Source of the DNA: Thermoanaerobaculia bacterium
Lineage (GTDB): Bacteria; Acidobacteriota; Thermoanaerobaculia; Multivoradales; UBA5704
Length of the DNA stretch: 64,000 bases
Direction of reading: 5' to 3'
NCBI GenBank assembly: GCA_035996875.1
Contig: DASYJD010000043.1
Coordinates: 6,724-70,723, forward strand
Within the stretch, counting starts at the first letter, position 1. Each line of letters begins with the position of its first letter. Both the position numbers and the translations under genes were made by a program. Under the pieces are notes generated by a model. It was not told the DNA's origin. It worked only from the letters and a program-made list of their open reading frames with translations, and ran no database searches. Below are positions 10,402 through 35,344 of the stretch, piece after piece.

Positions 10402-11528
10402 CTTTCGAGGCTCTCCGCCGCGCCGGCCATCGCCATCCGGTGCACGTAGTTGTAATAAGCGGCGCAAGCTCCCTCGGAGGAGACCATGAGCGCGCCCACC
10501 GGCCGCTCGGGGGTGCACTCGGTGCCGAAAAGCTTGCACTGCGGCGGCTTGAGGACGCCCTTGAGCACCTCACCGCACTGCGCCGCCTTGGGATCGGTCA
10601 CCCGGATGCCCGGAACGTCGAAGCGGCGCTCGGAGTCCCACTCCGCGAATTCATCGCGCAGCTTGAGTGCCGACTGCGAGATGAAGCCGAGACCGCGCCA
10701 CTCGAAGTACGGCCGCAGCTCGAACACCTCTTCCAGCACACGCAGCGCCGGCAGATTTCCCTCCCACGGCACCACCCGCGCATACTGGTTCTCGACCTCG
10801 GACCGGCCTTCCGCGAGCTGGCGCAGGATCATCACCAGCGATTGCAGGATGTCCAGCGGCTCGAACCCCGAGACCACGATCGGCTTGCCGTAATCCTGGG
10901 TGATGAACTCATAAGGGCGGCAGCCAATGACGGTCGAGACGTGGCCGGGCCCTACGAAGGCGTCCAGACGCATGTCCGGCGAGTCCAGGATGGCGCGGAT
11001 GGCAGGGATGATGGTCACGTGGTTGCAGAAGACGGAGAAGTTGTCGAGGCCGAGCTGGCGCGCCTTGAGGAGCGTCAGCGCCGTCGACGGCGCCGTCGTC
11101 TCGAAGCCAATGGCGAAGAAGACGACGTGCTTGCCGGGGTTGTTCTGCGCCAGCTTGATCGCGTCGAGCGGCGAGTAGACCATGCGGATCTCGGCGCCCC
11201 GCGCCTTGTGCTCCAGCGGGCTCCCCTTGGTGCCGGGCACCCGCATGACGTCGCCGAAAGCGGTGAAGACGACGCCCGGCAACTCGGCGAGCGTCAGGCC
11301 GTCGTCGGTGCGGCCCATCGGCAGCACGCACACCGGGCAGCCGGGGCCGTGGATGAGCTCAACGTTCTCCGGCAGCAATCCTTCCAGGCCGAAGCGGTAG
11401 ATGGCGTGGGTGTGGCCGCCGCACACCTCCATGATCCGGTAGTGGCGGCCGGGCCGCGCCAGCCGGCGGATCTCGTCGGCCGCCTGACGGATGAGCTTCG
11501 GATCGCGGAACTCGTCGACGTACTTCAT
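10398..11528 (-). CDS. hypD: Hydrogenase maturation protein HypD
   Basis: CGGHTHA, GPGCPVC and CPVC motifs. Confidence 0.9.
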   Translation of the reverse strand: MKYVDEFRDPKLIRQAADEIRRLARPGRHYRIMEVCGGHTHAIYRFGLEGLLPENVELIHGPGCPVCVLPMGRTDDGLTLAELPGVVFTAFGDVMRVPGTKGSPLEHKARGAEIRMVYSPLDAIKLAQNNPGKHVVFFAIGFETTAPSTALTLLKARQLGLDNFSVFCNHVTIIPAIRAILDSPDMRLDAFVGPGHVSTVIGCRPYEFITQDYGKPIVVSGFEPLDILQSLVMILRQLAEGRSEVENQYARVVPWEGNLPALRVLEEVFELRPYFEWRGLGFISQSALKLRDEFAEWDSERRFDVPGIRVTDPKAAQCGEVLKGVLKPPQCKLFGTECTPERPVGALMVSSEGACAAYYNYVHRMAMAGAAESLER

Positions 11529-21804: not shown

Positions 21805-21900
21805 GGTCGAAGAGGTCCGCGGCTGCCGGGAAACAGGATAAAAGCCTAGCACCCCCCTCTGGAGGCGTCAAACCGGGAGTTTCCGGGCAAGATCATGCTC

Positions 21901-23208
21901 TCACTGGAGTTGCTTGAAGATCTCGCCGCCTTTCATCACGAAATCGATGTGTTCGAGAGTCCGCACGTCGGCGAGCGGGTTGCCGGGAGCAGCGACGACG
22001 TCGGCCAGCAGACCCGGATCGAGAGCGCCCCGGTCGTCGACGCCCAGCAGATCCGCGGCGGCCAGCGTGGCGGCGCGAATCGCGGCGAGCGGCGACATTC
22101 CCGCCGCGACCAGCAGCGCGAATTGCCTGGCGTTCTGGCCATGAGGAGCGGTGCCGGCGTCGGTGCCGTAGGCGATCTTGACGCCGGCGCGGACGGCCAG
22201 TCGTAGGCTCGCCGCCGCCCGCCGCTTGACTTCCACCATCTTGGCGCGCATGGCGTCCGGGTAGTCCGCATAAGCGTCGCCTTCGACTAAAATGGAAGTG
22301 GGTACGAGATAGGTGCCGCGCTCCTTCATCAGGCGGACCGCTTCCTCGTCGAGCTGCGAGCCGTGCTCGATCGAGGCCACTCCGGCGCGCACCGCGTGCA
22401 GAGTGCTGGCCAGGGAGTGGGAATGGGCCATCACCTTCAGATGGCTCCGCCTCGCCTCGTCGACGACCGTCTTCATCTCCTCGTCGGAGAACTGCAGGAT
22501 GTCGAGCGGCCGGTCGATGTCGCCGATGCCTCCCGACACCATGAGCTTGATGACCTCCGCTCCGTGCTTGATTTGATATCGCACGGCGCGGAGCAGTTTC
22601 TCAGGGCCGTCGGCGACGCCCTGCTCGGGGGTGGTCTCGAAGACGCCGGGAGGCCAGCCGGTGTTGTCACCGTGGCCGCCCGTCATGCTGATCTGGTAGC
22701 CGGCCGGCACGATGCGAGGTCCCACGGCAATCCCCTTTTCAATCGCCTTCTTCAGCCCGACGTCGATATAGTCGTTGTCGCCTGCCGAACGCACGGAAGT
22801 GAACCCGGCCAGCAGGGTGATGCGCGCGTTCTCGGCGCCGTTCAACGTGGCGTCGACCGGTCCGTCGAACAGACTCTCCGTGAACTTGTGGTGATGCGGG
22901 CCGCCGATGGACAGGTGCACATGCATGTCGAAAAGCCCGGGCAGCAGCGTGCGATCCCCGAGCTCGATCCAATGCGCACCCGCCGGTACGGCGACCGCCG
23001 AGCGCGTCCCCACGGCGCGGATGTGGCCGTCGGCGACGAGCACCACGGCATCTTCGAGCATTCGGCCGCTCCGCACGTCGAGCAGGCGTTGCGCGTGGAG
23101 GACGGTGTCCTCCGCCCAGGCCGGTCCGACAGCCATGATTGCGATCGTCGCGAGCCGAACCAGCGGCGCCAATCTGAGGTAACGCCAAAATGCAAACCTT
23201 GAGGTCAT
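21901..23208 (-). CDS. Secreted metal-dependent amidohydrolase
   Basis: Signal peptide MTSRFAFWRYLRLAPLVRLATIAIMAVGPAWA. LLPGLFDMHVHLSIGG metal-binding motif. ATG at 23208. Confidence 0.8.
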   Translation of the reverse strand: MTSRFAFWRYLRLAPLVRLATIAIMAVGPAWAEDTVLHAQRLLDVRSGRMLEDAVVLVADGHIRAVGTRSAVAVPAGAHWIELGDRTLLPGLFDMHVHLSIGGPHHHKFTESLFDGPVDATLNGAENARITLLAGFTSVRSAGDNDYIDVGLKKAIEKGIAVGPRIVPAGYQISMTGGHGDNTGWPPGVFETTPEQGVADGPEKLLRAVRYQIKHGAEVIKLMVSGGIGDIDRPLDILQFSDEEMKTVVDEARRSHLKVMAHSHSLASTLHAVRAGVASIEHGSQLDEEAVRLMKERGTYLVPTSILVEGDAYADYPDAMRAKMVEVKRRAAASLRLAVRAGVKIAYGTDAGTAPHGQNARQFALLVAAGMSPLAAIRAATLAAADLLGVDDRGALDPGLLADVVAAPGNPLADVRTLEHIDFVMKGGEIFKQLQ

Positions 23209-23209
23209 A

Positions 23210-23614
23210 TTACTCCCAATGCTTTGCAACCCGCGCCTGGCGCCGACCGCCAGCGACGGGATATTTGACCGCGTGCTCCGCGATGCGAGCCTTGACCAGC
23301 TTTCGCACCAGAGGAGCCGGCAACGGATGGTCCGCCGGAAAGCGAAGCGTGCCCTTGCTGGTGTCATAGCCCGCGAGCTCGTCCTTGAGGGCTTCCAGAG
23401 GATAGGCGCCGGGATAGAAGGCGCAGTGGTTCTTGGCGTCGCCGAAGGACACCAGCAGCCTGCCGTTCAGACGAAAGCCGGGGATCGCATAGCTGATGCA
23501 CTCCTCAGCCTCCGGCGCCGCGGCCTTGATGTCCCGCCGGAGCTTCGCGAGCGCCGCCCGGTGCTCGTCGCTCAAAGAAGCAAGATATTCGTCGATCGTC
23601 TTTGCCTTCGCTGC
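23210..23614 (-). CDS. DUF1801 (YdhG-like) domain protein
   Basis: AAKAKTIDEYLASLSDEHRAALAKLR...ISYAIPGFRLNG. Probable TTG start near 23614 after a GGAGAG SD. The track's N-terminal extension runs through a REP element. Confidence 0.55.
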   Translation of the reverse strand, partial: AAKAKTIDEYLASLSDEHRAALAKLRRDIKAAAPEAEECISYAIPGFRLNGRLLVSFGDAKNHCAFYPGAYPLEALKDELAGYDTSKGTLRFPADHPLPAPLVRKLVKARIAEHAVKYPVAGGRRQARVAKHWE

Positions 23615-23652
23615 CAAGGCTACTCTCCAATCACAAGGACCTACCCAAGGTA

Positions 23653-23686
23653 GAGACGCCCCGCGGGGAACCCCGTGGGGCGTCTC
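23653..23686. repeat. REP-like palindromic hairpin, copy 3
   Basis: gagacgccccgcggggaaccccgtggggcgtctc. Confidence 0.75.
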
Positions 23687-23750
23687 CGTCGCGGCGACAC
23701 CGCCCCAAAATCCCAAATCTCCCGCGGCCAACAGGAATCTTACTCTCCCT

Positions 23751-23785
23751 TTCTTCCCGTCTTCCCGTCTTCCCGTCTTCCCGAG
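23751..23785. repeat. 9-bp tandem repeat (cccgtcttc) x ~4
   Basis: ttcttcccgtcttcccgtcttcccgtcttcccgag, between REP copy 3 and the toxin-antitoxin operon. Confidence 0.6.
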
Positions 23786-23911
23786 AAACCCTACAACCAT
23801 CGCCGAACCCGCCCGCAGTACTGTTGATACTCGTCCCCAAACACCTGAAGCAGGCGCCGCTCCTACACCGGAATCACGAGACGAGGTACTGCCCCGAGGT
23901 TGACCAAACCA

Positions 23912-23937
23912 CATAGAGACTGTATAAAGTCTCTATG
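23912..23937. promoter_or_regulatory. Perfect palindrome catagagact-gtataa-agtctctatg overlapping the antitoxin start codon (candidate autoregulatory operator)
   Basis: 10-bp arms. The ATG of the antitoxin gene is the last 3 nt of the palindrome. Confidence 0.5.
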
Positions 23938-24228
23938 AAGACTCTCACTATCACCGAGGCCAAGAAGAACCTGGGCCGCTGGCTGGCGGCGGCGGCCGGC
24001 GGCGATGACGTAGGCATCATCTTGGGGGCCGATATCATCGCCCTTCGCAAAGTGGAAGTGGAATCCATAGACTATGCGCAGAGTGAGTACGGTGCGACTC
24101 CAGAGCAGGTGGCCGCCTTACAGAAAACCGTGGACGACCGCTATCGCCAGCTCAGGCCTTCAGGGAAGCTTTTGACGGTCACAGCGGCCGAGCTGAGAGG
24201 ACTTCTTGAAGAAGCTTCTCTCCCTTGA
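23935..24228 (+). CDS. Type II antitoxin, Phd/YefM family
   Basis: MKTLTITEAKKNLGRWL..., typical Phd/YefM N-terminus. 97 aa. Overlaps the downstream gene. Confidence 0.65.
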   Translation: MKTLTITEAKKNLGRWLAAAAGGDDVGIILGADIIALRKVEVESIDYAQSEYGATPEQVAALQKTVDDRYRQLRPSGKLLTVTAAELRGLLEEASLP

Positions 24229-24496
24229 TCCCGAGGTCTTGAAACGGCTGAAGAAGCTCAAAAAAAAAGAGCGAGTGGAATGTTTGCTGGCCCTTGTTGA
24301 GATGGCGGACACGTTTGGCCAGCCTCATAGCCACAGCGGGATTGGTATCCGCAAGCTCGGCGACCGTCTTTTCGAGTGTCGAGGCAACTTAGCCTTGCGT
24401 TTCGTGTTTGAGAACCGAGCCGAGGATCTCTTCGTCTTCTTCCTGGGTAAACACACAGAAGTCCAGAAACTTCTTCGCACTGGCAGCTTGGGCTGA
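24206..24496 (+). CDS. Putative RelE/ParE-superfamily toxin
   Basis: TTG start overlapping the antitoxin 3' end by 23 nt. ...LALRFVFENRAEDLFVFFLGKHTEVQKL. Contains an A9 homopolymer at 24260..24268. Confidence 0.45.
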   Translation: MKKLLSLDPEVLKRLKKLKKKERVECLLALVEMADTFGQPHSHSGIGIRKLGDRLFECRGNLALRFVFENRAEDLFVFFLGKHTEVQKLLRTGSLG

Positions 24497-24579
24497 GGTC
24501 GCGGAGGGCTATTGCCTGGGCGGAGCCTTATCCAAGGCCCGCTGCGGACAGTGCCCGGCTCCTCCCGGCGCGATCCCTC

Positions 24580-25293
24580 TCACCCCACCCGGAACACCTT
24601 CATCACCTCGTCCCCCAGGTGATTGATGACCTTCACCGCGATGCGTCCCGACTTGGGCTTGTCGAACGGGCGTGAGGTGTCGCTGTGGAGGGTGGCCCAC
24701 GCTTCTTCGTTGATCTCCGCCTTGAGGGTGGTCTTGAGCGCCTTGTAGGGATCGTTGGCGCCCAGGAAGTAGGCGTGGCGGACGAAGAAGCTCTCTTCGT
24801 TGTAGTCGGTGTCGATGAACCAGCAGGCGATGCCCTCGGCGCCGTCGCTGCGGACCTCTCCGGTGTTCGGGTGGAAAACGTCGACACCGTTGATCTTGAC
24901 CTGAACCTGACCATCCTCGGCGGGGAGGATGTCGATATCAGGCTCACCGAAGATCACGAAGAGGTTGCCCTTGCCGGTGTTCTTCAAGTCGCCAGCCATA
25001 TGAAGGTCGGCGTTCATGCGCGCCTTGAGCACCGGGATGCGGCCGAGCTTGTTGAATTCGGAGGCGTGAGCCTCGTAGTTGAACGCACAGGCGATCAACA
25101 CGTCGAAGTCGGCGTCGCCAGCCTCGCGCGCAGCAGTGACGAGGTCGGGACGCGTGACGGTGCCGAACTCCGGACCGATGAAAATCGCGGCGCGCCTCTC
25201 TTTTCCCCCTTCGCCTCCTTCGAGATAACGCCCCTCGGCGCAAACATGGTTTCCGGGCCAGGGGTTAAGCGCGGAGAACAGAATCTTATCCAC
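24580..25293 (-). CDS. Detached C-terminal domain of the Type III Mod methyltransferase, the displaced 3' portion of mod
   Basis: GTG start at 25293, then DKILFS encoded by the 18-bp inverted repeat, then a ~230-aa methyltransferase C-terminal-type domain (...GRIAVKVINHLGDEVMKV). In frame with the mod 3' end if the 25291..27617 segment is inverted. Confidence 0.55.
   Translation of the reverse strand: MDKILFSALNPWPGNHVCAEGRYLEGGEGGKERRAAIFIGPEFGTVTRPDLVTAAREAGDADFDVLIACAFNYEAHASEFNKLGRIPVLKARMNADLHMAGDLKNTGKGNLFVIFGEPDIDILPAEDGQVQVKINGVDVFHPNTGEVRSDGAEGIACWFIDTDYNEESFFVRHAYFLGANDPYKALKTTLKAEINEEAWATLHSDTSRPFDKPKSGRIAVKVINHLGDEVMKVFRVG
25273..25290. repeat. Left 18-bp inverted repeat (ggagaacagaatcttatc) of the invertible R-M segment
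   Basis: Perfect reverse complement of 27618..27635. Confidence 0.85.
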
Positions 25294-25521
25294 CTTGTGG
25301 TTGAGGTCAAAGGGTACCGTCGGGAGGATGCGAAAGAAAAGAAAGCAGTTATGGATTCGTATTGGATACCGGGAGTCAACAACCTCCGCACCTACGGCCG
25401 ATGGGCTTTCGCCGAGCTAACCGAGGTCTACCAAATCGAGAGCGACCTTGCGTCCAGGATCGAGTCTTTTTTCAACCAAATGATCGACCAAACGGTTGAG
25501 TCCGCCATGTATATCGTCTAA
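25291..25521 (+). pseudogene. Displaced 3' end of res: last 76 codons including the EVK of the PD-(D/E)xK nuclease motif
   Basis: Reads HLVVEVKGYRREDAKEKKAVMDSYWIPGVNNLRTYGRWAFAELTE...MYIV*. This continues the Res frame ...PDFVLLLDYGEQNLI across the inverted repeat when the segment is flipped. Stop lies 14 nt before the mod ATG. Confidence 0.7.
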
Positions 25522-25535
25522 AGAATGGATCAGCG

Positions 25536-27683
25536 ATGGCCGGGAAGAAAAGCAATCAAACGCCGAAGCAGATCGAAACGCTTATTCATGAGGAAGCGTC
25601 GCGCAAGAACATTCCCACGGCCGAGCTTCAGTCGGTCATGGCGAAGAACACCCAAAGCCCAATTCAGGTTGCCTACGAGCGCCGGAACCGCGATCTAGAT
25701 CCGCAACTTGTCTGGCGCGGCAAGGACGAGAAGGACTGGTCGGATCTGGTGGTGACGGCGCCCCCACTGTTCATTCAGGAGAAGGTGCATCCTAAAGCAT
25801 TGATCGACGATCTGGTCCAACGAAGCTCGCGCTCGAAGGAACAGGCGTCGGGAGTTCAGATCGATCTGTTCGCGGACTTCAACGGCGTTCCTGAGGGGGA
25901 CGCCAAGACCGAGTTTTACCAGCACGAAGCGAACTGGACGAACCGCATGATCCTGGGCGATAGCCTGCAAGTGATGGCCTCGCTCGCCGAGCGCGAAGGA
26001 CTGCGCGGCAATGTCCAGTGTATCTACTTCGATCCGCCCTATGGCATCAAGTTCAACTCCAACTTCCAGTGGTCGACCACCAGCCGAGACGTCAAAGACG
26101 GCAATACGGATCACATCACCCGTGAGCCCGAGCAGGTGAGAGCATTCCGTGACACATGGCGTGATGGGATTCACAGCTACCTGACGTATCTACGCGATCG
26201 GCTAACGATAGCGCGAGATCTGCTGAGAGAGAGTGGATCGATCTTCGTGCAGATCGGCGATGAGAACGTTCACCTCGTTAGGGCAGTGATGGATGAGGTG
26301 TTCGGCGAACCAAACTTCATATCTCAGGTTGTCTTCAAGAAAACATCATCAACTTCTTCCGAGGATCTTTCAAGCGTTTTTGACTACCTGCTTTGGTATA
26401 GGAAATCCGCGGTCTGCAAATACCGCCCGCTGTTTCAGTTCAAGAATCCTGGCGATGAAGGCGCTACTCAGTATTCCTTGGGGGAAAGCAAGCTTGGGGA
26501 GCGTCGCACACTAGCCGATTGGAAGGAAGAAAATGTTATCGCGGGTTCACTAAGGGTTTTCGCGCACGACAACATCACTAGTCAACGCCCAGCTCAGGGA
26601 GAAGACGTTCGGGCACTTGAGTATGAGGGGCGCTATTTTTCAATCAAAAAGGGTACCTTTAAGACTGATGCGATAGGGTTGCGGCGGTTATCCCAAACGA
26701 AGCGAATGATCTTCGTAGGTGGCACACTGCGTTACGTGCGCTACCTGGATGACTTCAAGGTTTTTCCTTACTCGAATCTATGGACCGATACCACGACTTC
26801 CGGCTTTGCCGACCCGAAGGTCTACGTCGTACAGACGAATCGGTCTGTAATCGAGCGTTGCCTTCTAATGGCCACCGATCCTGGGGATCTCGTTCTCGAT
26901 CCAACCTGCGGCTCGGGCACCACAGCCTATGTCGCGGAGCAGTGGGGGCGCCGGTGGATTACAATCGATACCTCGCGCGTGGCCTTGGCGCTGGCTCGCG
27001 CTCGGATCATGGGGGCCCGCTATCCCTTCTATCATCTCGCGGACAGCCGCGAGGGCCAGCTCAAAGAGGCCGAAGTCCGTCGCACCGGGCCGAGCCAAGC
27101 CTCGACACACGGCGACCTGCGCCAGGGTTTCGTCTACGAGCGTGTGCCTCACATCACACTCAAGTCGATCGCCAACAACACTGAGATCGATGTCATCTGG
27201 GAGAGGTTCCAGCAGGCGCTAGAGCCCCTGCGTGGACAGCTCAACAGAGTTCTCGGCGAGACTTGGGAGGAATGGGAGATTCCTCGAGCTTCCGAGCCGA
27301 AATGGTCAGCGGACGTAAGGGACCTGCACGGCCGGTGGTGGAAGGAGAGGATCGCCCGGCAGAAGGAGATCGATGCCTCCATCGCCGCCAAGGCCGAGTA
27401 CGAGTATCTCTATGACAAGCCTTACTCGGACGACAGGAGAGTCCGCGTTGCAGGCCCATTTACGGTCGAGAGCATCTCGCCGCACCGTACTCTGGGAGTC
27501 GACGAGAACGACGACTTGATAGACTCCCTAGAGAGCGCCCAATGCGAGAGGCCGGACTTCGCCACCATGATCCTGGAAAACCTGAAGACCGCCGGGGTGC
27601 AACAATCGCGGCTAGACGATAAGATTCTGTTCTCCGTAGTCCAAAAGCAAAACAAAGTCCGGCAAGTACGTGCGGGCTTCTGA
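25536..27683 (+). CDS. mod: Type III R-M methyltransferase Mod (beta-class N6-adenine), present form with a nonsense 16-aa tail
   Basis: YFDPPYG (motif IV) then DPTCGSGTT (motif I); N-terminal LVWRGKDE. Ends ...SRLDDKILFSVVQKQNKVRQVRAGF*, after DKILFS (the 18-bp repeat) instead of continuing into the C-terminal domain encoded at 24580..25272. Confidence 0.85.
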   Translation: MAGKKSNQTPKQIETLIHEEASRKNIPTAELQSVMAKNTQSPIQVAYERRNRDLDPQLVWRGKDEKDWSDLVVTAPPLFIQEKVHPKALIDDLVQRSSRSKEQASGVQIDLFADFNGVPEGDAKTEFYQHEANWTNRMILGDSLQVMASLAEREGLRGNVQCIYFDPPYGIKFNSNFQWSTTSRDVKDGNTDHITREPEQVRAFRDTWRDGIHSYLTYLRDRLTIARDLLRESGSIFVQIGDENVHLVRAVMDEVFGEPNFISQVVFKKTSSTSSEDLSSVFDYLLWYRKSAVCKYRPLFQFKNPGDEGATQYSLGESKLGERRTLADWKEENVIAGSLRVFAHDNITSQRPAQGEDVRALEYEGRYFSIKKGTFKTDAIGLRRLSQTKRMIFVGGTLRYVRYLDDFKVFPYSNLWTDTTTSGFADPKVYVVQTNRSVIERCLLMATDPGDLVLDPTCGSGTTAYVAEQWGRRWITIDTSRVALALARARIMGARYPFYHLADSREGQLKEAEVRRTGPSQASTHGDLRQGFVYERVPHITLKSIANNTEIDVIWERFQQALEPLRGQLNRVLGETWEEWEIPRASEPKWSADVRDLHGRWWKERIARQKEIDASIAAKAEYEYLYDKPYSDDRRVRVAGPFTVESISPHRTLGVDENDDLIDSLESAQCERPDFATMILENLKTAGVQQSRLDDKILFSVVQKQNKVRQVRAGF

Positions 27684-30440
27684 GCCGTAGCGATAGGGCA
27701 CCTCGAGACCGAGGTTGTAATTTTTCACGTAGGCCCGTACTCGCGGATGCGACTCGGCCACGCGGCAGAGCTCAGCCTCCCAGTCGCTGTCGCAGACAAT
27801 CCAGTTGATATGGCAGCGGCGTGGATCGGTCTGCCACCGAGTCTCCTTCGAGGTGGTGAAGTGGACGTGCCGGGTCGAGCCCGTGGGGTTGTACGGATCG
27901 AGCATCGCCTTGACCGGCCGTTCCCCCACCAGGCTCGCGACGATGCCGTGGGTGATTCGCTCGCAGGCCATATCCGCCAGCTCCTCGTACAGGAGCTGCG
28001 CGGGGTACGTACCTCCGGTGCAAACCAGATGATGGTCGAGCCATTCGCCGGTGATTCGCTTGAGCTGGCCGAACAGATGGAGCTTGGGTTCCTCGCCGGG
28101 ATCGCGCCACTTGGTGTAGAGCAGACGCCGGGTGAGGTGGTAGAGCAACGTCGAGCGGCGAAGCTCGCCGGTGTGCACCAGGTTCAGATCGACCGCCTCA
28201 CCGAGAATGCCCTGGTTCCGGGTCACCGAGGGACCCACGAGATCCGGGGTCAGCTCAAGGGTCGAGTCGTCGTCGAAGCGGGCAGAGAGTTTCTCCTCGG
28301 GCAGCTCGACGCGGTAGCCCTCGACCCGTGGAAAACGGATCTCGCAGGCATCGCGCTCGGGACGAATCGCCTGGACCAGGACTGTCTCGCGAGGCGGCTG
28401 CGGCGGCGCCACCACCGGCTTCGCGTTGAAGTCAAAGGGGATGCCGAGCACGTCCGCATACTCGACGTTGAACAACCCCTCGTCGTTCAGATCGTACGAC
28501 TGGCGCCGGAGCGCCCGGCCGATCACCTGCTCGCAGAGGAGCTGAGTGCCGAAGGCGCGCACGCCGAGCACGTGGGTGACCGTGTTGGCGTCCCACCCCT
28601 CAGTCAGCATCGAGACGGAGACGACACAGCGGATGGAGCCACCGAGGCGTCCCTGCTTGCCGACTGTGTTCATCACCTCACGCAGGAGGTCTTCGTCCGA
28701 AAGGTTCTCTGCTTGCCGCTGGTCACCTGTGCGTTCACGGATCTCACGCCGGAAGCGATCGATCTCGTCCGCGGCCATCTTGCGGAAGTTGTCGTCGAGC
28801 CCTTCGCCGGCTTCGAGCTGCTCGCTGTCGATCAGCAGCGTGCGCGGCCGGCCGAGCCTGGCGCCCGACTCATCGAAGTTCCGGAAGAGAGGCAGCCGGC
28901 CATTCTCGATGGTTTTCGTGCCGTCATCGTTGGCGCGTTCGAAACCGGAGACGTAGTCATAGACCAGCTTCGAGGTCGAGGTGTTGTTGCACACCACGAT
29001 GAAGCAGGGAGGCACACTGACTCCGGCCTGCTCCCAAAGCTCGAAGGTCTTGGCATAGTGGCCGTAGAGGGCATCGAGCGCCGTCTGGAGCTTCGTCGGC
29101 AGCTTGAGGGGATCCAATCCGCCCGCCTTCGCGCGTCCCCTCTTCGGCATCTCGGCGCGAATGTGATCCCAGAGGTTGCGGAAGACGGGCATCTCTTCCC
29201 CCGGGATGTTGTCCGCGACCGGCACCCGGGGGAGCTTCACGATGCCGCTTTCGATGGCGTCCATCAGGGAGAAGTCGCTCATGGTCCAGGGGAAGAGGGT
29301 GCCCTCGGCGTAGCCCGAGCCGCGGAGGAAGAACGGCGTCGCCGATAGATCGATCACTCGCAGCAGGCCGAGCTTGCGCTGGACTCTCTCCAGTCCGGAG
29401 ATCCAGAGCCGTGCAGCCTCCTGGTTGCGTTCGGCTTCCTGCCGGTCCTCTCCCTTCAGCTCGTCCTCGTCGGGCTCGCCAGGTTTTTGGCGGTAGCAGT
29501 GATGGGCCTCGTCGTTGAGCACGAGGACGTTCTTCATTCCCATCAGGTCGGGCATCACGCGCTGAAGCATCTGGCCTTCGGTTTCGAGGGTCGAAAGCTC
29601 CGGCCCACGACCTTGGAGCAGCGCCCGGTTCCCTTTCGACAGCTCAAGCACCTCGCGCAGCTTGAAGGCGTGATAGTTGGTGATGACGATTTTCGCCCTC
29701 CCGAGATCCCCCAGGAGATCGGGCGGCACCAGCTCTCGGCTCTGGTAGTAGCTGTCCGGGTCGTTCGGCTGTAGCACCCGCAGACGGTCCCGGATCGTCA
29801 GGCCGGGGGTGACGACGAGGAAGCCTCGGGTGAACCGGCGGCTGTTCGGCCGGCGCACCGCATTGATCGTCTGCCAGGCGATGAGCATCGCCATGACGGT
29901 CGTCTTGCCGGTTCCGGTCGCGAGCTTGAGCGCCAGGCGGGCCAGCCCTGGGTTCGCCTCCTCGTTCGCCGCCGAGAGGTGATCGAGAAACTTCTGGCCC
30001 GCGGCGCCCAGTTTCGGCGCCACCTCGACGAGCCAGATGATTGTCTCAACCGCTTCGACCTGGCAGAAGAATGGCCGCAAAGCGCTGAACTTGTGGTGCC
30101 GCCAGTGTGCAAGGAGCCGTGCCGTCTCGGGAGTCACCGCCCAGTCGTTGGCGTTCGGCAGCTCCCGCCAGGCGTCGACCGTTTGACGCAGGGCGTTGAT
30201 GACGGGCGTTGGGTCGTACTTCTGGCGCTCGGTCGACAGACCCATAGCATCCTGGAGAAGGAGCTCCCTCTGCCCTATCCGTTGCTTCTTTGCCTGCGGA
30301 ATCGGCGACACGTACTGCGCCGACCGCCGCCGCTCGATCACCCGGTTCGTCGGCTGTCCGCTCTCGTCGAGCTCCCAGTACTGCGCAGGATAGTCGTATG
30401 GCGAGTTGAGGATGGGACGGTCAAAAAACGACAGGGACAT
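27612..30440 (-). CDS. res: Type III R-M restriction subunit Res (SF2 helicase/ATPase), truncated in the PD-(D/E)xK motif in the present orientation
   Basis: Reverse complement from 30440 reads MSLSFFDRPILNSPYDYP... Walker A TGTGKTT, DEAH box VLNDEAHH. C-terminus ...PDFVLLLDYGEQNLIV* lacks the EVK. The track labels this ORF '+', but the + strand at 27612 is in the Mod frame. The gene is on the minus strand. Confidence 0.85.
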   Translation of the reverse strand: MSLSFFDRPILNSPYDYPAQYWELDESGQPTNRVIERRRSAQYVSPIPQAKKQRIGQRELLLQDAMGLSTERQKYDPTPVINALRQTVDAWRELPNANDWAVTPETARLLAHWRHHKFSALRPFFCQVEAVETIIWLVEVAPKLGAAGQKFLDHLSAANEEANPGLARLALKLATGTGKTTVMAMLIAWQTINAVRRPNSRRFTRGFLVVTPGLTIRDRLRVLQPNDPDSYYQSRELVPPDLLGDLGRAKIVITNYHAFKLREVLELSKGNRALLQGRGPELSTLETEGQMLQRVMPDLMGMKNVLVLNDEAHHCYRQKPGEPDEDELKGEDRQEAERNQEAARLWISGLERVQRKLGLLRVIDLSATPFFLRGSGYAEGTLFPWTMSDFSLMDAIESGIVKLPRVPVADNIPGEEMPVFRNLWDHIRAEMPKRGRAKAGGLDPLKLPTKLQTALDALYGHYAKTFELWEQAGVSVPPCFIVVCNNTSTSKLVYDYVSGFERANDDGTKTIENGRLPLFRNFDESGARLGRPRTLLIDSEQLEAGEGLDDNFRKMAADEIDRFRREIRERTGDQRQAENLSDEDLLREVMNTVGKQGRLGGSIRCVVSVSMLTEGWDANTVTHVLGVRAFGTQLLCEQVIGRALRRQSYDLNDEGLFNVEYADVLGIPFDFNAKPVVAPPQPPRETVLVQAIRPERDACEIRFPRVEGYRVELPEEKLSARFDDDSTLELTPDLVGPSVTRNQGILGEAVDLNLVHTGELRRSTLLYHLTRRLLYTKWRDPGEEPKLHLFGQLKRITGEWLDHHLVCTGGTYPAQLLYEELADMACERITHGIVASLVGERPVKAMLDPYNPTGSTRHVHFTTSKETRWQTDPRRCHINWIVCDSDWEAELCRVAESHPRVRAYVKNYNLGLEVPYRYGSEARTYLPDFVLLLDYGEQNLIV
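27618..27635. repeat. Right 18-bp inverted repeat (gataagattctgttctcc)
   Basis: Encodes DKILFS in Mod (+) and GEQNLI in Res (-). Confidence 0.85.
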
Positions 30441-30785
30441 TTAGCAGAGGATATCTCACTGCGGCGAATGAATCCCATCCTGGCCCGCGTCACCCTTGGC
30501 AGGGTTGGGGATGGTGGGGTTCGCAGGGGTCCCAGGGTTGCACCCTGGGCTAGAGGAATGCCGCCCTCCGGGCTCTCGGCGTCGTCCATTGAGCTTTCAA
30601 GAGCCGCTCAACGCTCCTCGGGTACCTGACCGAAGACCTTGGCACCTCTCGCCACAACACGCAGGCTGACTACAACCGTACTGGAAAGCAGCTTGGCGCT
30701 GGACGGACTGCAAAATACCCCACGCCTACGGCCAAGCCGGCTGCCGAGCGCGGCCGAGGCCTACCACTCCTCCCGGACCCGTGAC

Positions 30786-30930
30786 CGGCCCCTTCAGGCC
30801 ACGGGTCCCCGCGGGTCTGCCGATCGTCTCAGCACCTTCTGCGAGCGAGCGGACCCAGGGCCGGAGGGGCGGTTGGACTCCCGGCCCCCCGGCGGATTTC
30901 AGTTGTCAAAGAACCTGCTTCACCCCGATC
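30786..30930. repeat. Left arm of a long (~140-bp, ~85% identity) inverted repeat
   Basis: Includes ggccggaggggcggttggactcccggccccccggcgg and the flanking ...gttgtcaaaga motif. Reverse complement matches 31640..31790. Confidence 0.7.
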
Positions 30931-31224
30931 GATGAGACCTCCTCGCCGGGCACTGCCTCCAGGAGGCAGGATCATACACCAAGAGAATCTGAAAACGTCA
31001 ATGCCAGTGAGCGAGATTTTTGAAAATTTCTAGGCTATCGTCAACCTTCTCAGAGAAGGGCAGACGTTTTCCACCGCTTCAAGACGCGATCCGTCACCTT
31101 GGCAGGAGGCGACCGTCGCCATTCGGCGCCCGGCCGGAACCGGTGGAGCGACCGCCCGCCCCTAGGGGCTGACCTGCTCCGGCCTCCTGAGAGGCAGCGG
31201 CCAGAAGATCGAGCCGGTCCGCCG

Positions 31225-31505
31225 CTGTTGAAAGTCGACTAGCCGCCGGCGGCCGACGCCGCGCCGGCAGCGGCGAGCCTCCGGCCGGTAGCCGAAATCC
31301 TCTCGCCGGTAGCGGCAAGTCGTCGGCCGGCAGCGGCCAGTCGTTGGCCGGTAGCGGCGGATCGTTCGCCGCCAGCGGCCAGTCGTCGGCCGGCAACGGT
31401 TAGTCGTTCGCCGCCAGCAGCCAGCCGTCTACCGGTAGCGGCGAGCCTCCGGCCGGCAGCGGCGAGTCGTCGGCCGGTGCCGGCTAACCGTCCGCCGGTA
31501 GCGGT
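31225..31505. repeat. Second degenerate 21-bp tandem array (~13 units; ggccggcagcggccagtcgtt family)
   Basis: Heptad LPADDWP-like on the minus strand but interrupted by stops, so probably non-coding. Lies inside the long inverted-repeat element. Confidence 0.7.
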
Positions 31506-31639
31506 CAGATGCCGCGAAGCCTACAAATTTCGTCTCGCATTGGCCACAGAAACCGTCTGTTAGGTTTTGTTCCAAAATCTAACAGGGTACTTGACTTCTT
31601 CAGGTGCCATGGATGTATGATCCAGCTCCCCTTCGGCGG

Positions 31640-31790
31640 GAAGGTCCCGCCGGCCGGGGTAGGTAGGCTCTTTGACAACTTGAACCGCCGGGGGGCCGGG
31701 AGCCCAACCGCCCCTCCGGCCCTTAGATCCGCTCGAACGCAGAGGGTGCGGAGACGATCGAGCGGATCTCAACGACCCGTGGCCTTAAGG
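31640..31790. repeat. Right arm of the long inverted repeat
   Basis: Reverse complement aligns with 30786..30930. Confidence 0.7.
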
Positions 31791-32019
31791 CGGGCAGGCC
31801 ACGGGTTTGTTTGTGTTTGGGGAGACAGGAGGGGGTGGAGAGGCGGCCAGGAAGGCGGCTTCGACGGAGGGTCCCCGAATCTCCCCGGCGGGGGTTGTCG
31901 TTTGATTGGGGCGGGATTGCCGCCTCGGAGACGTCCCGCCATTCCCGGGCCTGCGGAGGGGTGGCGTGGTCGGGCTGGGAGCGTCTCTACCCCTCCGGCC
32001 AGCTCTTTTGACGAGCTCC

Positions 32020-32350
32020 TACTTCCCCGCCAGGAACGCCTTTAGGACATGCCGGGCGACTTCGGGGTTCTCGCGCAGCCTCCGCATGGAGTATGGATAC
32101 CAGTCCCGGCCATAGGGGACGTAGACGCGCAAGCGGTGGCCGGCGGCGAGGAGGATGCGGCGCAGCTCGTCGTCCACCCGAGCAGCATCTGGAACTCGTA
32201 GCGGTCGCGGGGCACACTGTGCTTATCGAGGAGGGCCGTGGCCTCGCAAGCCAGATACTCGTCGTGGGTGGCGATGCCCACATAGACGCCGCGCAGAATG
32301 AGCTTCTCCAGGGCGCTGACGTAGTTGGCCCGCACGGTGTCATACCCCTT
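32020..32350 (-). pseudogene. Duplicated 3' fragment of proline dehydrogenase, frameshifted
   Basis: ~95% identical to 34445..34775. Encodes ...YDTVRANYVSALEKLILRGVYVGIATHDEYLACEATALLDKHSVPRDRYEFQMLLG, then a 1-bp deletion (cgtcgtccacccgag versus cgtcgtccaccccgag). Confidence 0.75.
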
Positions 32351-32433
32351 CCACCTTCGCGGATCGCCACCGGCCCAGCGCCGGTCAGGGCGTTCAACAG
32401 TTCCCACCGCTTGCCGGTGAGCGTCCCTGGAAA

Positions 32434-33918
32434 CTACTGCACCTGGAAGTTGACCGTTAGTACGTAGTAGACCTTGACAGGTTTACCCTCGAGCGTGGCC
32501 GGCCTGAACTTCCACTCTTGGACCGCCTCCACTGCAGAACCGTCGAGGCCCATAGGCAAGCCCTTGAGCACGCGAACGTTGGTGACATTGCCACCGGTGT
32601 CGATGATGGCTTCGACGATTACCGTACCAGTGACGCGTGCGCGACGGGCGAGTTCGGTGTAGACCGGCTCGACCTTATTGATGATCTCCGGCCGAGTTAC
32701 GCCGCCGCTAACGCGCAAGGGAGCATCTTCAACCACGCCGCCGCCACCGCCCGTCATCCCGGTGTCAACAGCGGTCGGCTCGCTGATGCGGTCGGCCGAG
32801 CCCCCTGCCTTGTGCATCGCCGGCAAATCCGTTGCCTTTTTTCCCAATGGCTGCTTTGGCGATTTCTGCTTAAAAGATGGCTGCTCAGGTGATGGCTGCT
32901 CAGCTAATGGCGAGGCCCGTTTTGAACCTACTTCCAGATTGATCAATAGCGGGACGGCGATCATAGCCACCAAGGCTAAGATGACACCCCACCAACGCAA
33001 GCTTGCCCTTGGAGAGGCTGTAGGTGCGCCAAGGGTAAAGCTCGGAGGCGACGCTGTGGGCCAGGGAGGCGCGACTGAAGACCTAGGCGGGACGGAGGTC
33101 GGCCCGCTCGGAGCTGCTGGTAAAGGATTGGGACCCCACCGCGAAGCAGGGGCCTCGCGGGCCCTCTGGGGTTCTGGCTCCGCTTTCTTTTGAACCCTCG
33201 CGGCCTGGGCCGCTTCTCGCTCCGCCGCCACAGCCTTCGCCTTGGCGGCCACTTGCGTTGCCAGTTCCGCTGCCTCCGCTGCCGCAGCCCATCTGGCTCG
33301 CTCTTCTGCCGCGATTCTCTCTTTGACCGTCCTTTCCGCCGCCAGCTTGGAGGCCGCCTCTCGAGCTGCGGCCAGTTCCAGTTGGTGGGCGCGCCATCGG
33401 AGCAAGGCGGTTAGCTCCCATCGAGCGGCGCGCAGTTCCTCTTTTTCTCTGAGCGTCGTCTTGAGCACGTTCTCCAAGTCGCTCAGCAGGCGAGACAGGT
33501 GGGAGTCGAAGTCCTGGAAGGGATCGAGGGTGGCTCCGTCGCGCCAGCCGAGATCCTTCAATTCCTCGGGCAGTTGTTGCGGCCGAGGCATCTCGACGCC
33601 TGCCAAGCAGACCGGCACCACTGGCAGCCAGCTCCGCTTAAGACTCTCCGCGACCTCGTAGCGAACCCAGTCCCGAGGATCCTCCAGCCGCTCGGTCAGG
33701 AGCTGTAACCACGCCGGACCGATGATGACCAGCACGATGTCGGTTACGCGTAAAGCCCGATCGACTTTCACAGGGAAGGACAGTCCCGGGCTTCGAGAGT
33801 CGACGTCCAGGAAGGTGCTCTCTTCGCCATAGCGCCTGCGGAGCTCTCGGAAGATCATGTGCGCCAAGTATTTACCTTCCTGGTCGCTCCTCCTGTACGA
33901 GATGAAGAAGTGTGGCAT
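32434..33918 (-). CDS. TIR-domain protein with coiled-coil, Pro-rich segment, one TM helix and periplasmic TonB C-terminal domain (novel architecture)
   Basis: N-terminal MPHFFISYRRSD...RDWVRYEVAESLKR (TIR_2-like with a candidate catalytic Glu). Ala/Glu-rich coiled coil. TM helix WWGVILALVAMIAVPLLINL. C-terminal ...RPEIINKVEPVYTELARRARVTGTVIVEAIIDTGGNVTNVRVLKG...VQEWKFRPA (TonB_C). Confidence 0.75.
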   Translation of the reverse strand: MPHFFISYRRSDQEGKYLAHMIFRELRRRYGEESTFLDVDSRSPGLSFPVKVDRALRVTDIVLVIIGPAWLQLLTERLEDPRDWVRYEVAESLKRSWLPVVPVCLAGVEMPRPQQLPEELKDLGWRDGATLDPFQDFDSHLSRLLSDLENVLKTTLREKEELRAARWELTALLRWRAHQLELAAAREAASKLAAERTVKERIAAEERARWAAAAEAAELATQVAAKAKAVAAEREAAQAARVQKKAEPEPQRAREAPASRWGPNPLPAAPSGPTSVPPRSSVAPPWPTASPPSFTLGAPTASPRASLRWWGVILALVAMIAVPLLINLEVGSKRASPLAEQPSPEQPSFKQKSPKQPLGKKATDLPAMHKAGGSADRISEPTAVDTGMTGGGGGVVEDAPLRVSGGVTRPEIINKVEPVYTELARRARVTGTVIVEAIIDTGGNVTNVRVLKGLPMGLDGSAVEAVQEWKFRPATLEGKPVKVYYVLTVNFQVQ

Positions 33919-34089
33919 CTCGGTTCAGACGCTCTCTAGCGCTCCTCTAGGGACATTCCATGGAGCGCATGGACAGGCAATAACAATCCGACGCGCAAGT
34001 ATTTACGACGAGGACGATCAGAAGGCTAACGCTGGACGGTTAACGCTGTCAAACAGACGCGCCCGCGACAACCTGCATCTGCGACGTAG

Positions 34090-34434
34090 TCAGGCGTTTG
34101 CCAGCGCAACCACCAAGCGTTTGCCCACGGCGTCGGCGTAGCGCACGAGGGTCTCGATGGTAGGGTTGAGGCGTTGCCCGGTTTCAAGTTTCGAGAGAGC
34201 CGACCGATCCATGCCAGTCAGTCGAGTCAAATCCGAAAGGCTCAATCCTTTTTCTTCGCGGGCGGACTTCAGTTGGTGGACCAGGTCTGTCAACTGGTCG
34301 AGGGCTGCCATGCGCTCCTCATGCCGCGCGATCAACTCGGGCAGCTCTTCTGTAACCTGTTTCCGGATCTCGCGATTTTCCGCGGCTTCTTCAGGAGAGA
34401 GGCGGCTATCACGGGTGATACGCCGAAGGCTCAT
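34090..34434 (-). CDS. XRE-family HTH protein (HigA-like; C-terminal helix-turn-helix)
   Basis: LSLSDLTRLTGMDRSALSKLETGQRLNPTIETLVRYADAVG. 114 aa. Immediately upstream of the TIR gene and downstream of putA-like PRODH. Confidence 0.7.
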   Translation of the reverse strand: MSLRRITRDSRLSPEEAAENREIRKQVTEELPELIARHEERMAALDQLTDLVHQLKSAREEKGLSLSDLTRLTGMDRSALSKLETGQRLNPTIETLVRYADAVGKRLVVALANA

Positions 34435-34444
34435 CGCCGGCTCC

Positions 34445-35344
34445 CTACTTCCCCGCCAGGAACGCCTTCAGCACATGCCGGGCGACTTCGGGGTTCTCGC
34501 GCAGCCTCCGCATGGAGTATGGATACCAATCCCTCCCATAGGGGACGTAGACGCGCAGGCGGTGGCCGGCGGCGAGGAGGATGCGGCGCAGCTCGTCGTC
34601 CACCCCGAGCAGCATCTGGAACTCGTAGCGGTCACGGGGCACACTGTGCTTGTCGAGGAGGGCCGTGGCCTCACAAGCCAGATATTCGTCGTGGGTCGCG
34701 ATGCCCACGTAGACGCCACGCAGGATGAGCTTCTCCAGGGCGCTGACGTAGTTGGCCCGCACGGTCTCGTAACCCTTCCAGGCCACCTTGCGCGACTCGA
34801 TGTAGATCCCCTTGCAGAGGCGCACGGAGGCGCCTTCGGCGGGCAGGTCGTCGATGTCCTTCAGGGTGCGGCGCATGTAGGCCTGGAGGACGCAGCCGAC
34901 GTTGCCGTGGCGGGCCTGGAGGTCGCGGTAGATGCGCAGCGTGGCATCCGTCGTCGATTGGTCCTCCATGTCGATACGCACGGAGTTGCCCTGCGCCTTC
35001 GCCGTCTCGGCGATGCGGCCGATGTTGTCGCGGCAGAAACCCTCGTCGATCTTCAGCCCCAGGAGGGTCGGCTTGATGGAGACGTTGGCGTTCAGCTTCT
35101 CCCGTTCGATCGCCGCGAAGGCCCGGAGGTTCTCCTCGGTGGCGGCGAGGGCTTTCTCGCGCTCGCTGACCTCCTCGCCGAGGACGTCGACGGTCGCCAT
35201 GGCGCCTTCCTGATTGAGGCCGCGGATGATGCGGACGGCATCTTCGAGAGTCTCGCCCGCGACGTAGCGGGAGGCCACCCGGCGGACGACGGGTTTGGGC
35301 ACCAGAGGCAGGGTGGTGACCAGCAAGCGGTTGAACACACTCAT
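34445..35344 (-). CDS. Proline dehydrogenase (monofunctional PRODH)
   Basis: 299 aa. ...VRLCKGIYIE...YETVRANYVSALEKL...RLRENPEVARHVLKAFLAGK. Confidence 0.85.
   Translation of the reverse strand: MSVFNRLLVTTLPLVPKPVVRRVASRYVAGETLEDAVRIIRGLNQEGAMATVDVLGEEVSEREKALAATEENLRAFAAIEREKLNANVSIKPTLLGLKIDEGFCRDNIGRIAETAKAQGNSVRIDMEDQSTTDATLRIYRDLQARHGNVGCVLQAYMRRTLKDIDDLPAEGASVRLCKGIYIESRKVAWKGYETVRANYVSALEKLILRGVYVGIATHDEYLACEATALLDKHSVPRDRYEFQMLLGVDDELRRILLAAGHRLRVYVPYGRDWYPYSMRRLRENPEVARHVLKAFLAGK

Follow-up and report, generated by a model that had tools for sequence, protein, structure and literature searches.

A candidate envelope-coupled receptor joining a SARM1-type TIR domain to a TonB C-terminal domain in a variable genomic hotspot of a Thermoanaerobaculia bacterium

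The window analyzed here, a 64,000-nucleotide stretch of contig DASYJD010000043.1 (assembly GCA_035996875.1) from a Thermoanaerobaculia bacterium, carries an open reading frame (ORF) at 32434..33918 on the reverse strand (stop codon, 32434-32436) that encodes a protein of 494 amino acids with a TIR domain at one end and a TonB C-terminal domain (CTD; TonB_C) at the other. We read this protein as an envelope-coupled membrane receptor with a SARM1-type TIR NADase and a periplasmic TonB CTD, probably encoded by a conflict or defense gene, and we give this reading about an even chance of being right. An XRE-family ORF coding for 114 amino acids (34090..34434) is located upstream on the same strand, after a gap of 171 nucleotides. 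A previous sequence-only reading of this DNA had described the two ORFs, their domains, and the order of the segments, and ORF, Pfam, and hydropathy checks found all of these descriptions correct. The exact 494-amino-acid protein was already deposited in public from a Thermoanaerobaculia (Acidobacteriota) metagenome-assembled genome under the label "TonB family protein", which is a mis-annotation by the protein's minor domain. The pair formed by the XRE and TIR-TonB_C genes also occurs on two other contigs, one of 137 kb from JGI and one of 2.2 kb from Logan, the latter the product of a separate assembly. Therefore, it is unlikely that the fusion is an assembly chimera.

The N-terminal domain was identified by profile searches and by structure prediction. 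Pfam TIR_2 matched residues 4-138 with 34.2 bits (cut-off, 28). AlphaFold2 was run separately on two halves of the protein, residues 1-260 and 395-494; a combined MAFFT alignment of TIR and TonB_C relatives for a full-length model was dropped because the TonB_C rows were misaligned. The model of residues 1-260 had a predicted local distance difference test score (pLDDT) of 92.4 and showed a TIR fold, with the beta-alpha unit repeated five times, at residues 1-136. The top Foldseek matches in the PDB were SARM1 TIR domains (E 1e-7, TM-score 0.84, 25% identity). Plant TIRs ranked after them, and AbTir, BtpA, and PdTIR were clearly worse (TM-scores 0.5-0.6). The family profile matched the SARM1 TIR with an E value of 5.6e-19 (72 bits), and the next matches outside SARM1 were found at E values of about 0.04 (BtpA, 0.046). 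In the profile alignment, from which the SARM1 residue numbering was derived, Y8, R9, and R10 (FISYRR) align with SARM1 Y568, R569, and R570, the aspartate of FLDV (D38) aligns with D594, and W84 and E88 (DWVRYE) align with W638 and the catalytic E642. D38, D83, and E88 were invariant in 88 aligned family sequences, as were several core residues, and W84, Y8, R9, and R10 were at least 90% conserved or family-typical. Since the profile and Foldseek matches and the alignment of the active-site residues point to the same group, the domain was assigned to the SARM1 type, with an apparently complete active site and the appearance of a catalytically competent enzyme. The earlier proposal of a TIR_2-type domain that includes the conserved glutamate position was thus upheld by the hidden Markov model (HMM) search and the predicted structure.

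Following the TIR domain, the AlphaFold2 model contains a single uninterrupted helix of about 110 residues (137-246), with a pLDDT that exceeds 95 along most of the helix, and this segment is conserved with the family members P0004-P0011 described below. Alanine and glutamate make up 30% and 16% of residues 146-250, arginine accounts for 11% of the helix, and residues 251-303 are 28% proline. These compositions, together with the modeled helix, agree with the Ala/Glu-rich coiled coil and the Pro-rich spacer proposed from the sequence. The only strong hydrophobic segment, WWGVILALVAMIAVPLLINL, occupies residues 309-328 as counted from the printed sequence and overlaps the best 19-residue Kyte-Doolittle window (312-330, score 2.53). 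There is therefore a single strong hydropathy peak, and it coincides with the one transmembrane (TM) helix quoted before. The predicted topology, with the TIR domain in the cytoplasm and TonB_C in the periplasm, holds as an inference because the protein has no signal peptide, positive charges (RASLR) precede the TM helix, and TonB_C relatives of about 310 residues have an apparent signal peptide. In these relatives (e.g., P0036) it is a hydrophobic N-terminal segment, taken by eye as a signal peptide, that would place TonB_C outside the cytoplasm.

The identification of the C-terminal domain as TonB_C is also well founded, as all the approaches used agree. Pfam TonB_C matched residues 417-492 with 68.6 bits (cut-off, 24.6) and NCBIfam tonB_Cterm (TIGR01352) gave 51.5 bits (cut-off, 27.1). 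The AlphaFold2 model of residues 395-494, for which 45 relatives were aligned, had a pLDDT of 89.1 and was matched by Foldseek to the TonB CTDs 6i97_D, 1u07, and 2gsk_B with TM-scores of 0.76-0.83, including copies bound to FoxA, BtuB, and FhuA; TolA domain III was a much poorer match (E 0.2-0.5). Over the last 95 or so residues, the protein shares 70-80% identity with many Thermoanaerobaculia "TonB family" proteins. Only one protein, P0285, matched into the linker, from residue 354 onward. It is a canonical TonB, encoded upstream of exbB and exbD (locus L016), that has a poly-Pro spacer and an N-terminal TM helix containing a His. The CTDs of P0285 and of the 494-residue protein share 76% identity, and the TM helices of the two proteins are unrelated. 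The idea that P0285 could be a fragment of a second TIR-TonB_C gene was ruled out, as it is a canonical TonB adjoining exbB-exbD. In L016 (824-1528) this canonical tonB has an in-frame stop between the TM segment and the poly-Pro linker, a sequencing error or the mark of a pseudogene, and the gene caller split it into ORFs of 48 and 153 amino acids. The CTD is thus a genuine TonB domain that is plausibly able to bind TonB boxes. The earlier statement that it docks onto TonB-box receptors was kept at this level, as plausible, on the basis of the identity to a TonB encoded next to exbB-exbD.

The public label and the closeness of the CTD to that of a real TonB would also be expected from an ordinary TonB paralogue energized by ExbBD and provided with an unusual N-terminal extension. 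We consider this explanation barely credible. No SxxxH motif was found anywhere in the 494 residues and there is no His in the TM helix, which is unrelated to that of the canonical TonB (P0285) and lies internally rather than at the N-terminus. In the window and its contig, the 10 kb to each side of the gene contained no MotA_ExbB or ExbD gene, and the full-length TonB equivalog models of NCBIfam were missed by far (best scores of 27 bits versus 265 and 21.8 versus 418). In addition, TonB proteins have a short N-terminal tail, whereas here about 300 residues of TIR and coiled coil would be in the cytoplasm. What is shared with TonB is the fold of the CTD and its C-terminal position after a flexible periplasmic linker; the whole protein fails the defining features of an energy-transducing TonB. 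Both the TIR and TonB_C assignments are therefore backed by profiles, and what was found is not a TonB paralogue encoded beside exbBD with a non-TIR N-terminal domain, the two outcomes that the sequence-only reading had named as fatal to its proposal.

The use of the TonB_C domain in Thermoanaerobaculia extends far beyond canonical TonB proteins. Many of the relatives are non-canonical and consist of an apparent signal peptide (by eye), TonB_C, and then a helical or TPR domain (e.g., P0036). Others carry two to five tandem TonB_C domains at the C-terminus (e.g., P0199-P0203 and P0216). A protein of the same clade, P0077, has a Ser/Thr kinase followed by a TM helix and TonB_C, which shows that signaling enzymes of the cytoplasm can have the TonB CTD as their extracytoplasmic module.

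A comparison of the N-terminal part showed that the protein belongs to a larger group. Over its first 283 or so residues it shares 60-88% identity with about 30 Thermoanaerobaculia proteins that have diverse C-termini: a multi-pass membrane module with Cys motifs (P0004-P0011, P0019, and P0020), a TMEM43/DUF1625 module (P0013), a single TM tail (P0017), or nothing after the coiled coil (P0121, P0124, and P0126). Two proteins, P0002 (473 amino acids) and P0003 (633 amino acids), contain two tandem TIR plus coiled-coil units per polypeptide, to which P0003 adds two C-terminal TM helices. More distant TIR relatives are proteins of about 233 residues in which the TIR is accompanied by one or two TM helices. 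The C-terminal module found most often in the family (P0004-P0011, P0019, P0020, and P0029; e.g., L003 10001-11536 and 13487-15160) has about 280 residues, three or four TM helices, and no Pfam match; its Cys motifs, of the form CxxC...CxxC (CEACxxWC ... CxKCG), come after the TM helices. The DNA homology to the closest relatives (P0004 and P0005, both in L003), as determined by blastn, ends at about position 33068 of the window, which corresponds to residue 283 or so and lies inside the spacer before the TM helix. Residues 284-399 had no homologue among 326 fetched proteins, and no second TIR or TonB_C copy that could have been the donor was found in the 64-kb window. These comparisons identify the protein as a domain-swap variant within a mobile, modular Thermoanaerobaculia TIR-coiled-coil family, in which the usual membrane module was replaced by a TM helix, a linker, and a CTD that seems to derive from a TonB-type protein. 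Members of this family mostly carry other C-terminal modules.

The same layout was found in other lineages. An exhaustive scan of 1.84 billion representatives yielded 87,394 matches, and among the proteins retrieved from it both halves were combined only in the protein under study and in P0032. When P0032 was used as the query, a multi-phylum TIR-TM-PASTA-type family was recovered with 1,629 matches at E <= 0.001, in which a TIR at the N-terminus is followed by a TM helix and PASTA domains; other matches in this search carry caspase, DUF1566, or TPR modules. P0032, P0327, and P0328 are three diverged members (55-91% identity) in which the TIR-TM-PASTA arrangement ends in a C-terminal TonB_C. 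P0418 (441 amino acids) reproduces the exact order studied here, that is, TIR, Glu/Ala-rich coiled coil, TM helix, linker, and TonB_C. Like the 494-residue protein, all these proteins start with a TIR, in some cases followed by a coiled coil, and then have a single TM helix and a binding domain on the extracytoplasmic side. However, the TIR lineage of P0418 and of P0032, P0327, and P0328 is only about 34% identical to its TIR, and most proteins of this class use PASTA rather than TonB_C. Since P0418 and the P0032 group are built from a different TIR lineage, the layout had independent origins. Taken together, these comparisons indicate that a cytoplasmic TIR joined through a TM helix to an extracytoplasmic binding domain is a real and recurrent design, with TonB_C as one of the rarer sensor modules. 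In the neighborhood of one TIR-PASTA member (L014, 7001-8290) there are three nSTAND1-WD40 genes, together with one TIR and one SIR2-TIR gene.

A literature search found nothing on TIR-TonB_C or TIR-PASTA proteins; two apparent "TIR/TonB_C" matches were discarded because they dealt with TIRF microscopy in Myxococcus gliding. The nearest mention was that of TM-anchored PASTA, OmpA, and PEGA modules in iSTAND conflict systems (PMC7159879). The claim that the architecture was novel is therefore correct in that no paper describing the fusion was found, but the architecture is not unique, as P0418, P0032, P0327, P0328, and more than 1,600 TIR-TM-PASTA-type proteins attest. As far as the literature search reaches, no description exists of a trans-membrane receptor layout that includes a TonB CTD; TIR NADase-sensor fusions are already known as a kind.

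The gene is located in a variable region of the genome. The TIR-TonB_C gene has a G+C content at third codon positions (GC3) of 0.70, and the values of the XRE gene and of a neighboring methylase are 0.67 and 0.68, compared to 0.889 +/- 0.029 for 14 core genes. The cassette is thus foreign in its codon composition, and we regard the gene as horizontally acquired. Synteny with the related genome GCA_036275055.1 (L003), which includes EamA, acetyltransferase, PaaA/C-like, and Pro_dh genes, ends exactly at the Pro_dh stop codon; it is lost between positions 34444 and 21808 of the window and returns at the FHA-GGDEF, CobW, and HypA genes. Besides the XRE and TIR-TonB_C genes, the variable stretch (21900-34443) contains the genes for type III Res and Mod, DUF1801 and amidohydrolase genes, a pseudo-fragment of Pro_dh, non-coding DNA rich in repeats, and several small ORFs of low G+C content (0.57-0.58 between 24 and 28 kb). 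L003 has at the same site two TIR-family genes (P0004 and P0005) and a RelE/HTH pair instead. The type III Mod and Res proteins matched Pfam N6_N4_Mtase (116.5 bits) and ResIII (33.8 bits), respectively, and the PADLOC REase_III match was weak. A variable region, an adjacent type III restriction-modification (R-M) system, and an atypical GC3 are features of an accessory hotspot, a context that is no proof of function. The position of the gene in a variable hotspot beside the R-M system supports the sequence-only reading in this respect. Other members of the TIR-coiled-coil family are found at unrelated loci, usually near toxin-antitoxin (TA) modules (HicB, PhdYeFM, PIN, RES, or RelE).

The 2.4-kb cassette formed by the XRE and TIR-TonB_C genes is bracketed by a 337-nucleotide direct repeat with 95% identity between copies (319/337), each of which is about 87% identical to the L003 Pro_dh gene. 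A site-specific integrative element was considered and rejected, as there is no integrase or transposase between the repeats and the repeat is the 3' end of a host gene. A single crossover of the Campbell type, involving a circularized fragment from a relative about 95% identical, or an unequal-crossover duplication, fits better. Related arrangements were seen elsewhere. In L007 a TIR family gene is located between copies (6972-7892 and 9807-10730) of a nearly whole Pyr_redox_2 gene (920 nucleotides, 95.6%), and in L009 (6700-7862 and 8665-9808) an in-frame fusion joins the TIR module to a second copy of the TMEM43 gene next to it, with 86% identity between the copies. The duplicated host DNA around the family genes in the window, L007, and L009 suggests insertion by Campbell-type recombination or unequal crossover, processes that would be able to create fusions.

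This setting bears on whether the protein is a defense receptor or a physiological sensor of the envelope. According to the latter explanation, proteins with the TIR-TM-(PASTA/TonB_C) layout would monitor the state of the cell wall or the outer membrane and respond with an NAD-derived signal or a metabolic brake, with no link to phages. PASTA domains are the sensors of cell-wall-monitoring PASTA kinases, and the sister class with PASTA domains is very large and spread over many phyla. Furthermore, the kinase-TM-TonB_C protein P0077 occurs in the same clade, P0327 adjoins a PadR regulator and a MacB-type ABC transporter (an envelope-stress-type context), and no known defense family was matched by PADLOC. 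Nonetheless, we consider a purely physiological role unlikely in the case of this gene. It is foreign in composition and flanked by a duplication, the closest relative lacks it at the syntenic site and has different TIR variants there, it is adjacent to an R-M system, and its family is scattered at unrelated loci near TA modules. Because of the foreign GC3, the duplication, the variable site, and the R-M and TA neighbors, an accessory conflict gene fits better than a housekeeping sensor.

Several observations weigh against an envelope-coupled defense receptor. Most members of the TIR-coiled-coil family lack TonB_C and, for this reason, sensing of TonB boxes would not be the general mechanism of the family. 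PADLOC found no ThsB match for the protein, its best match being a partial SAVED_TIR match of 16 bits in the TIR part, and the best result of the NCBIfam scan for defense TIRs, Thoeris ThcB4, was not significant (18 bits; cut-off, 220). The neighborhoods of other proteins that combine TIR and TonB_C are not clearly defensive (PadR, MacB-type ABC transporter, and RHS toxin). The protein is a singleton, the one member of its 90%-identity cluster, and so far it was found only on contigs with the same gene pair (three contigs read). Since this cluster is a singleton and the TM-plus-linker segment has no homologue, the gene could be a recent fusion, unproven by selection.

An extreme form of this last possibility is a recent chimera in which a TIR-coiled-coil gene was joined to the tail of a TonB-type gene, the CTD serves at most as an anchor and senses nothing, and the gene is neutral or being lost. 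The sharp homology breakpoint near residue 283 and the orphan, low-complexity TM-plus-linker segment, which has the lowest GC3 within the gene (0.58-0.67), are consistent with such an event. So is the fusion of a TIR module to a duplicate of an adjacent TMEM43 gene, which indicates that the module fuses opportunistically to downstream genes. However, the reading frame is intact, the TM helix is well formed with positive-inside flanks, and the CTD is complete and folds with confidence. Moreover, the layout arose independently at least twice more (P0418 and the P0032 group), which argues that it is selectable. A functionless chimera is thus quite unlikely in our opinion, and the receptor reading is the one developed below.

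As an envelope-coupled receptor, the protein would have a type II orientation, with the TIR domain and the coiled-coil stalk of about 110 residues in the cytoplasm, one TM helix, the linker, and the CTD in the periplasm. At rest, the membrane-tethered TIR domains would be kept apart or inactive, and the CTD would not be energized by ExbBD because the TM helix is of a different type. The ligand of the CTD may be a beta strand, such as the exposed TonB box of an outer-membrane receptor or that of a TonB-box-bearing protein of an invader. Its capture would cluster or re-register the coiled-coil stalks, which would transmit or enforce the oligomeric state set by the periplasmic CTD, and in this way bring the TIR domains together. 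A composite TIR active site could then form and cleave NAD+, leading to NAD+ depletion or to an ADP-ribose (ADPR)-type signal and, as the outcome, to growth arrest or abortive infection. The activity, the activation by clustering, the ligand, and the role in defense or conflict are proposed from the anatomy of the protein. According to one report, TIR NADase activity, in SARM1 as well as in the bacterial enzymes, generally depends on self-association driven by the attached domains (PMC12847820). Another report indicates that a membrane tether restrains an acquired bacterial-type TIR NADase and that the SARM1 TIR branches inside a mainly bacterial clade (PMC13142454).

The comparison with known systems shows partial likeness to several of them. 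SARM1, the animal NAD+ hydrolase, is by far the best match of the TIR in sequence and structure, including the catalytic Glu and the NAD-site residues. However, the protein lacks the ARM and SAM domains and has instead a coiled coil, a TM helix, and a TonB CTD in the predicted periplasm, and its NADase activity is a prediction. Unlike SpbK, which is cytoplasmic, it has a sensor predicted to be in the periplasm. Both are otherwise single polypeptides in which a TIR NADase is joined to a sensor part; according to the part of the SpbK report that was available, sensor-driven oligomerization of the TIR activates SpbK, which interacts with the phage protein YonE and assembles into filaments, and that part mentions no membrane anchor (PMC12847820). 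Thoeris ThsB and the CBASS and Pycsar TIR effectors have in common with the protein a TIR domain likely acting on NAD+, but there was no significant HMM match to their TIRs. Pfam searches detected no ThsA-like gene (SIR2/SLOG or Macro-TM) in the window and the contig neighborhood and no SAVED, STING, or cyclic nucleotide (cNMP)-binding domain in the protein or encoded nearby, and no cyclase gene was found in the neighborhood.

With Toll-like receptors and PASTA Ser/Thr kinases the protein would share a domain that binds ligands outside the cytoplasm, one TM helix, and a signaling domain on the cytoplasmic side, which in Toll-like receptors is a TIR. In contrast to Toll-like receptors, the orientation is reversed, with the TIR N-terminal and inside, and the TIR is of the enzymatic SARM1 type and not a scaffold. 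The likeness is thus an analogy of layout and does not extend to homology of the whole proteins. To our knowledge, the bacterial TIR immune proteins known so far detect infection from within the cell, with phage proteins, nucleic acids, or second messengers as the cues. A more speculative proposal, which we regard as doubtful, is that bacteria possess trans-envelope immune receptors in the style of Toll-like receptors, made of a SARM1-type TIR NADase, a TM helix, and a PASTA or TonB_C sensor. In these, an un-energized TonB CTD would act as a decoy or sentinel for the exposure or mimicry of TonB boxes at receptors hijacked by phages and colicins, and NAD+ would be depleted before or during genome entry. 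If this were true, a TIR NADase wired to a periplasmic TonB or PASTA domain would couple an event at the level of the envelope to NAD+ destruction, a bacterial receptor with the logic of Toll-like receptors would be built on the type of TIR ancestral to SARM1, and the TonB CTD would have a new role as a ligand-sensing module uncoupled from ExbBD. The TIR-TM-PASTA relatives are many, so any result would generalize, and the protein is small and encoded by a single gene. In addition, a family found between duplicated host segments and fusing to downstream genes is a natural example of how new receptor architectures are put together.

The XRE gene had been presented as a paired regulator or antitoxin. 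Its product matched Pfam HTH_3, a helix-turn-helix (HTH) family, at residues 55-107 (46 bits). The role as a conserved partner was not borne out by the neighborhoods, since the XRE gene is intact in one of seven TIR-family contexts, that of the window, and missing from five. A remnant is left in L003 (13028-13169), where residues 6-46 are conserved with 80% amino acid identity and the HTH domain was deleted, upstream of the intact TIR gene P0005. About 130 nucleotides before the TIR start were kept in the window, P0004, and P0005 regardless of XRE; this stretch (Table 1) is 81-83% identical to L003 9872-10000 and 13427-13482, upstream of both TIR genes. A two-gene TA or regulator-effector module, in which XRE would neutralize or repress a TIR toxin, is consistent with two adjacent genes on the same strand, with similarly low GC3, that form one duplicated cassette. 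The XRE protein also matched HTH regulators of defense systems in PADLOC (capH, 34.8 bits, and HTH_VI), though only as a generic HTH, and the remnant upstream of P0005 implies that the pairing predates the split of both genomes. However, the gap between the genes includes the conserved TIR-specific upstream region and XRE had no above-cut-off match to an antitoxin family in NCBIfam. With the losses described above, these observations make such a module very unlikely. Because XRE is absent from five of the seven contexts and is an HTH-less remnant beside the intact P0005, the gene is an old but dispensable neighbor rather than an obligate antitoxin, and its product most likely acts as a local, accessory regulator or is a mere passenger.

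Table 1. Positions in the window of the segments of the TIR-TonB_C gene and of neighboring features
Feature	Positions	Strand	Remarks
TIR domain, SARM1-like, with catalytic-type Glu E88	33511..33918	-	residues 1-136
Long Ala/Glu/Arg-rich helix, putative coiled-coil stalk	33181..33510	-	residues 137-246
Predicted cytoplasmic Pro/Ala/Ser-rich spacer	33010..33168	-	residues 251-303
Single transmembrane helix WWGVILALVAMIAVPLLINL	32935..32994	-	residues 309-328; after RASLR
Predicted periplasmic linker, Gly/Pro/Ser/Lys-rich	32671..32934	-	residues 329-416, about 90 residues
TonB C-terminal domain	32437..32670	-	residues 417-494
Conserved stretch upstream of the TIR gene	33919..34052	-	putative own promoter or 5' UTR (untranslated region)
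XRE-family HTH gene	34090..34434	-	114 amino acids; HTH residues 55-107 at 34114-34272
Direct repeat, copy B	34444..34780		3' end of intact Pro_dh gene (34445-35344, -)
Direct repeat, copy A	32018..32353		displaced Pro_dh 3'-end pseudo-fragment, 1-nt deletion
Type III R-M system	25536..30440		Mod 25536-27683 (+), Res 27612-30440 (-); same variable hotspot

The non-coding parts of the region were also inspected. An Rfam scan of the segment between 30.3 and 34.5 kb identified no RNA family, and a blastn comparison of the cassette with phage genomes gave no match. A scan of the cassette for sigma-70 promoters and terminators produced none above the shuffled expectation, and the consensus used may not apply to Acidobacteriota. 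Between positions 30857 and 31723, imperfect inverted repeats surround about 790 nucleotides of non-coding DNA, which gives this element the look of a miniature inverted-repeat transposable element (MITE), and no further copy of it was found in the window. The inverted repeat has a 39-nucleotide core with one mismatch and reaches about 55 nucleotides with a small indel, and the element contains 11.5 degenerate tandem repeats of 21 nucleotides (31263-31504).

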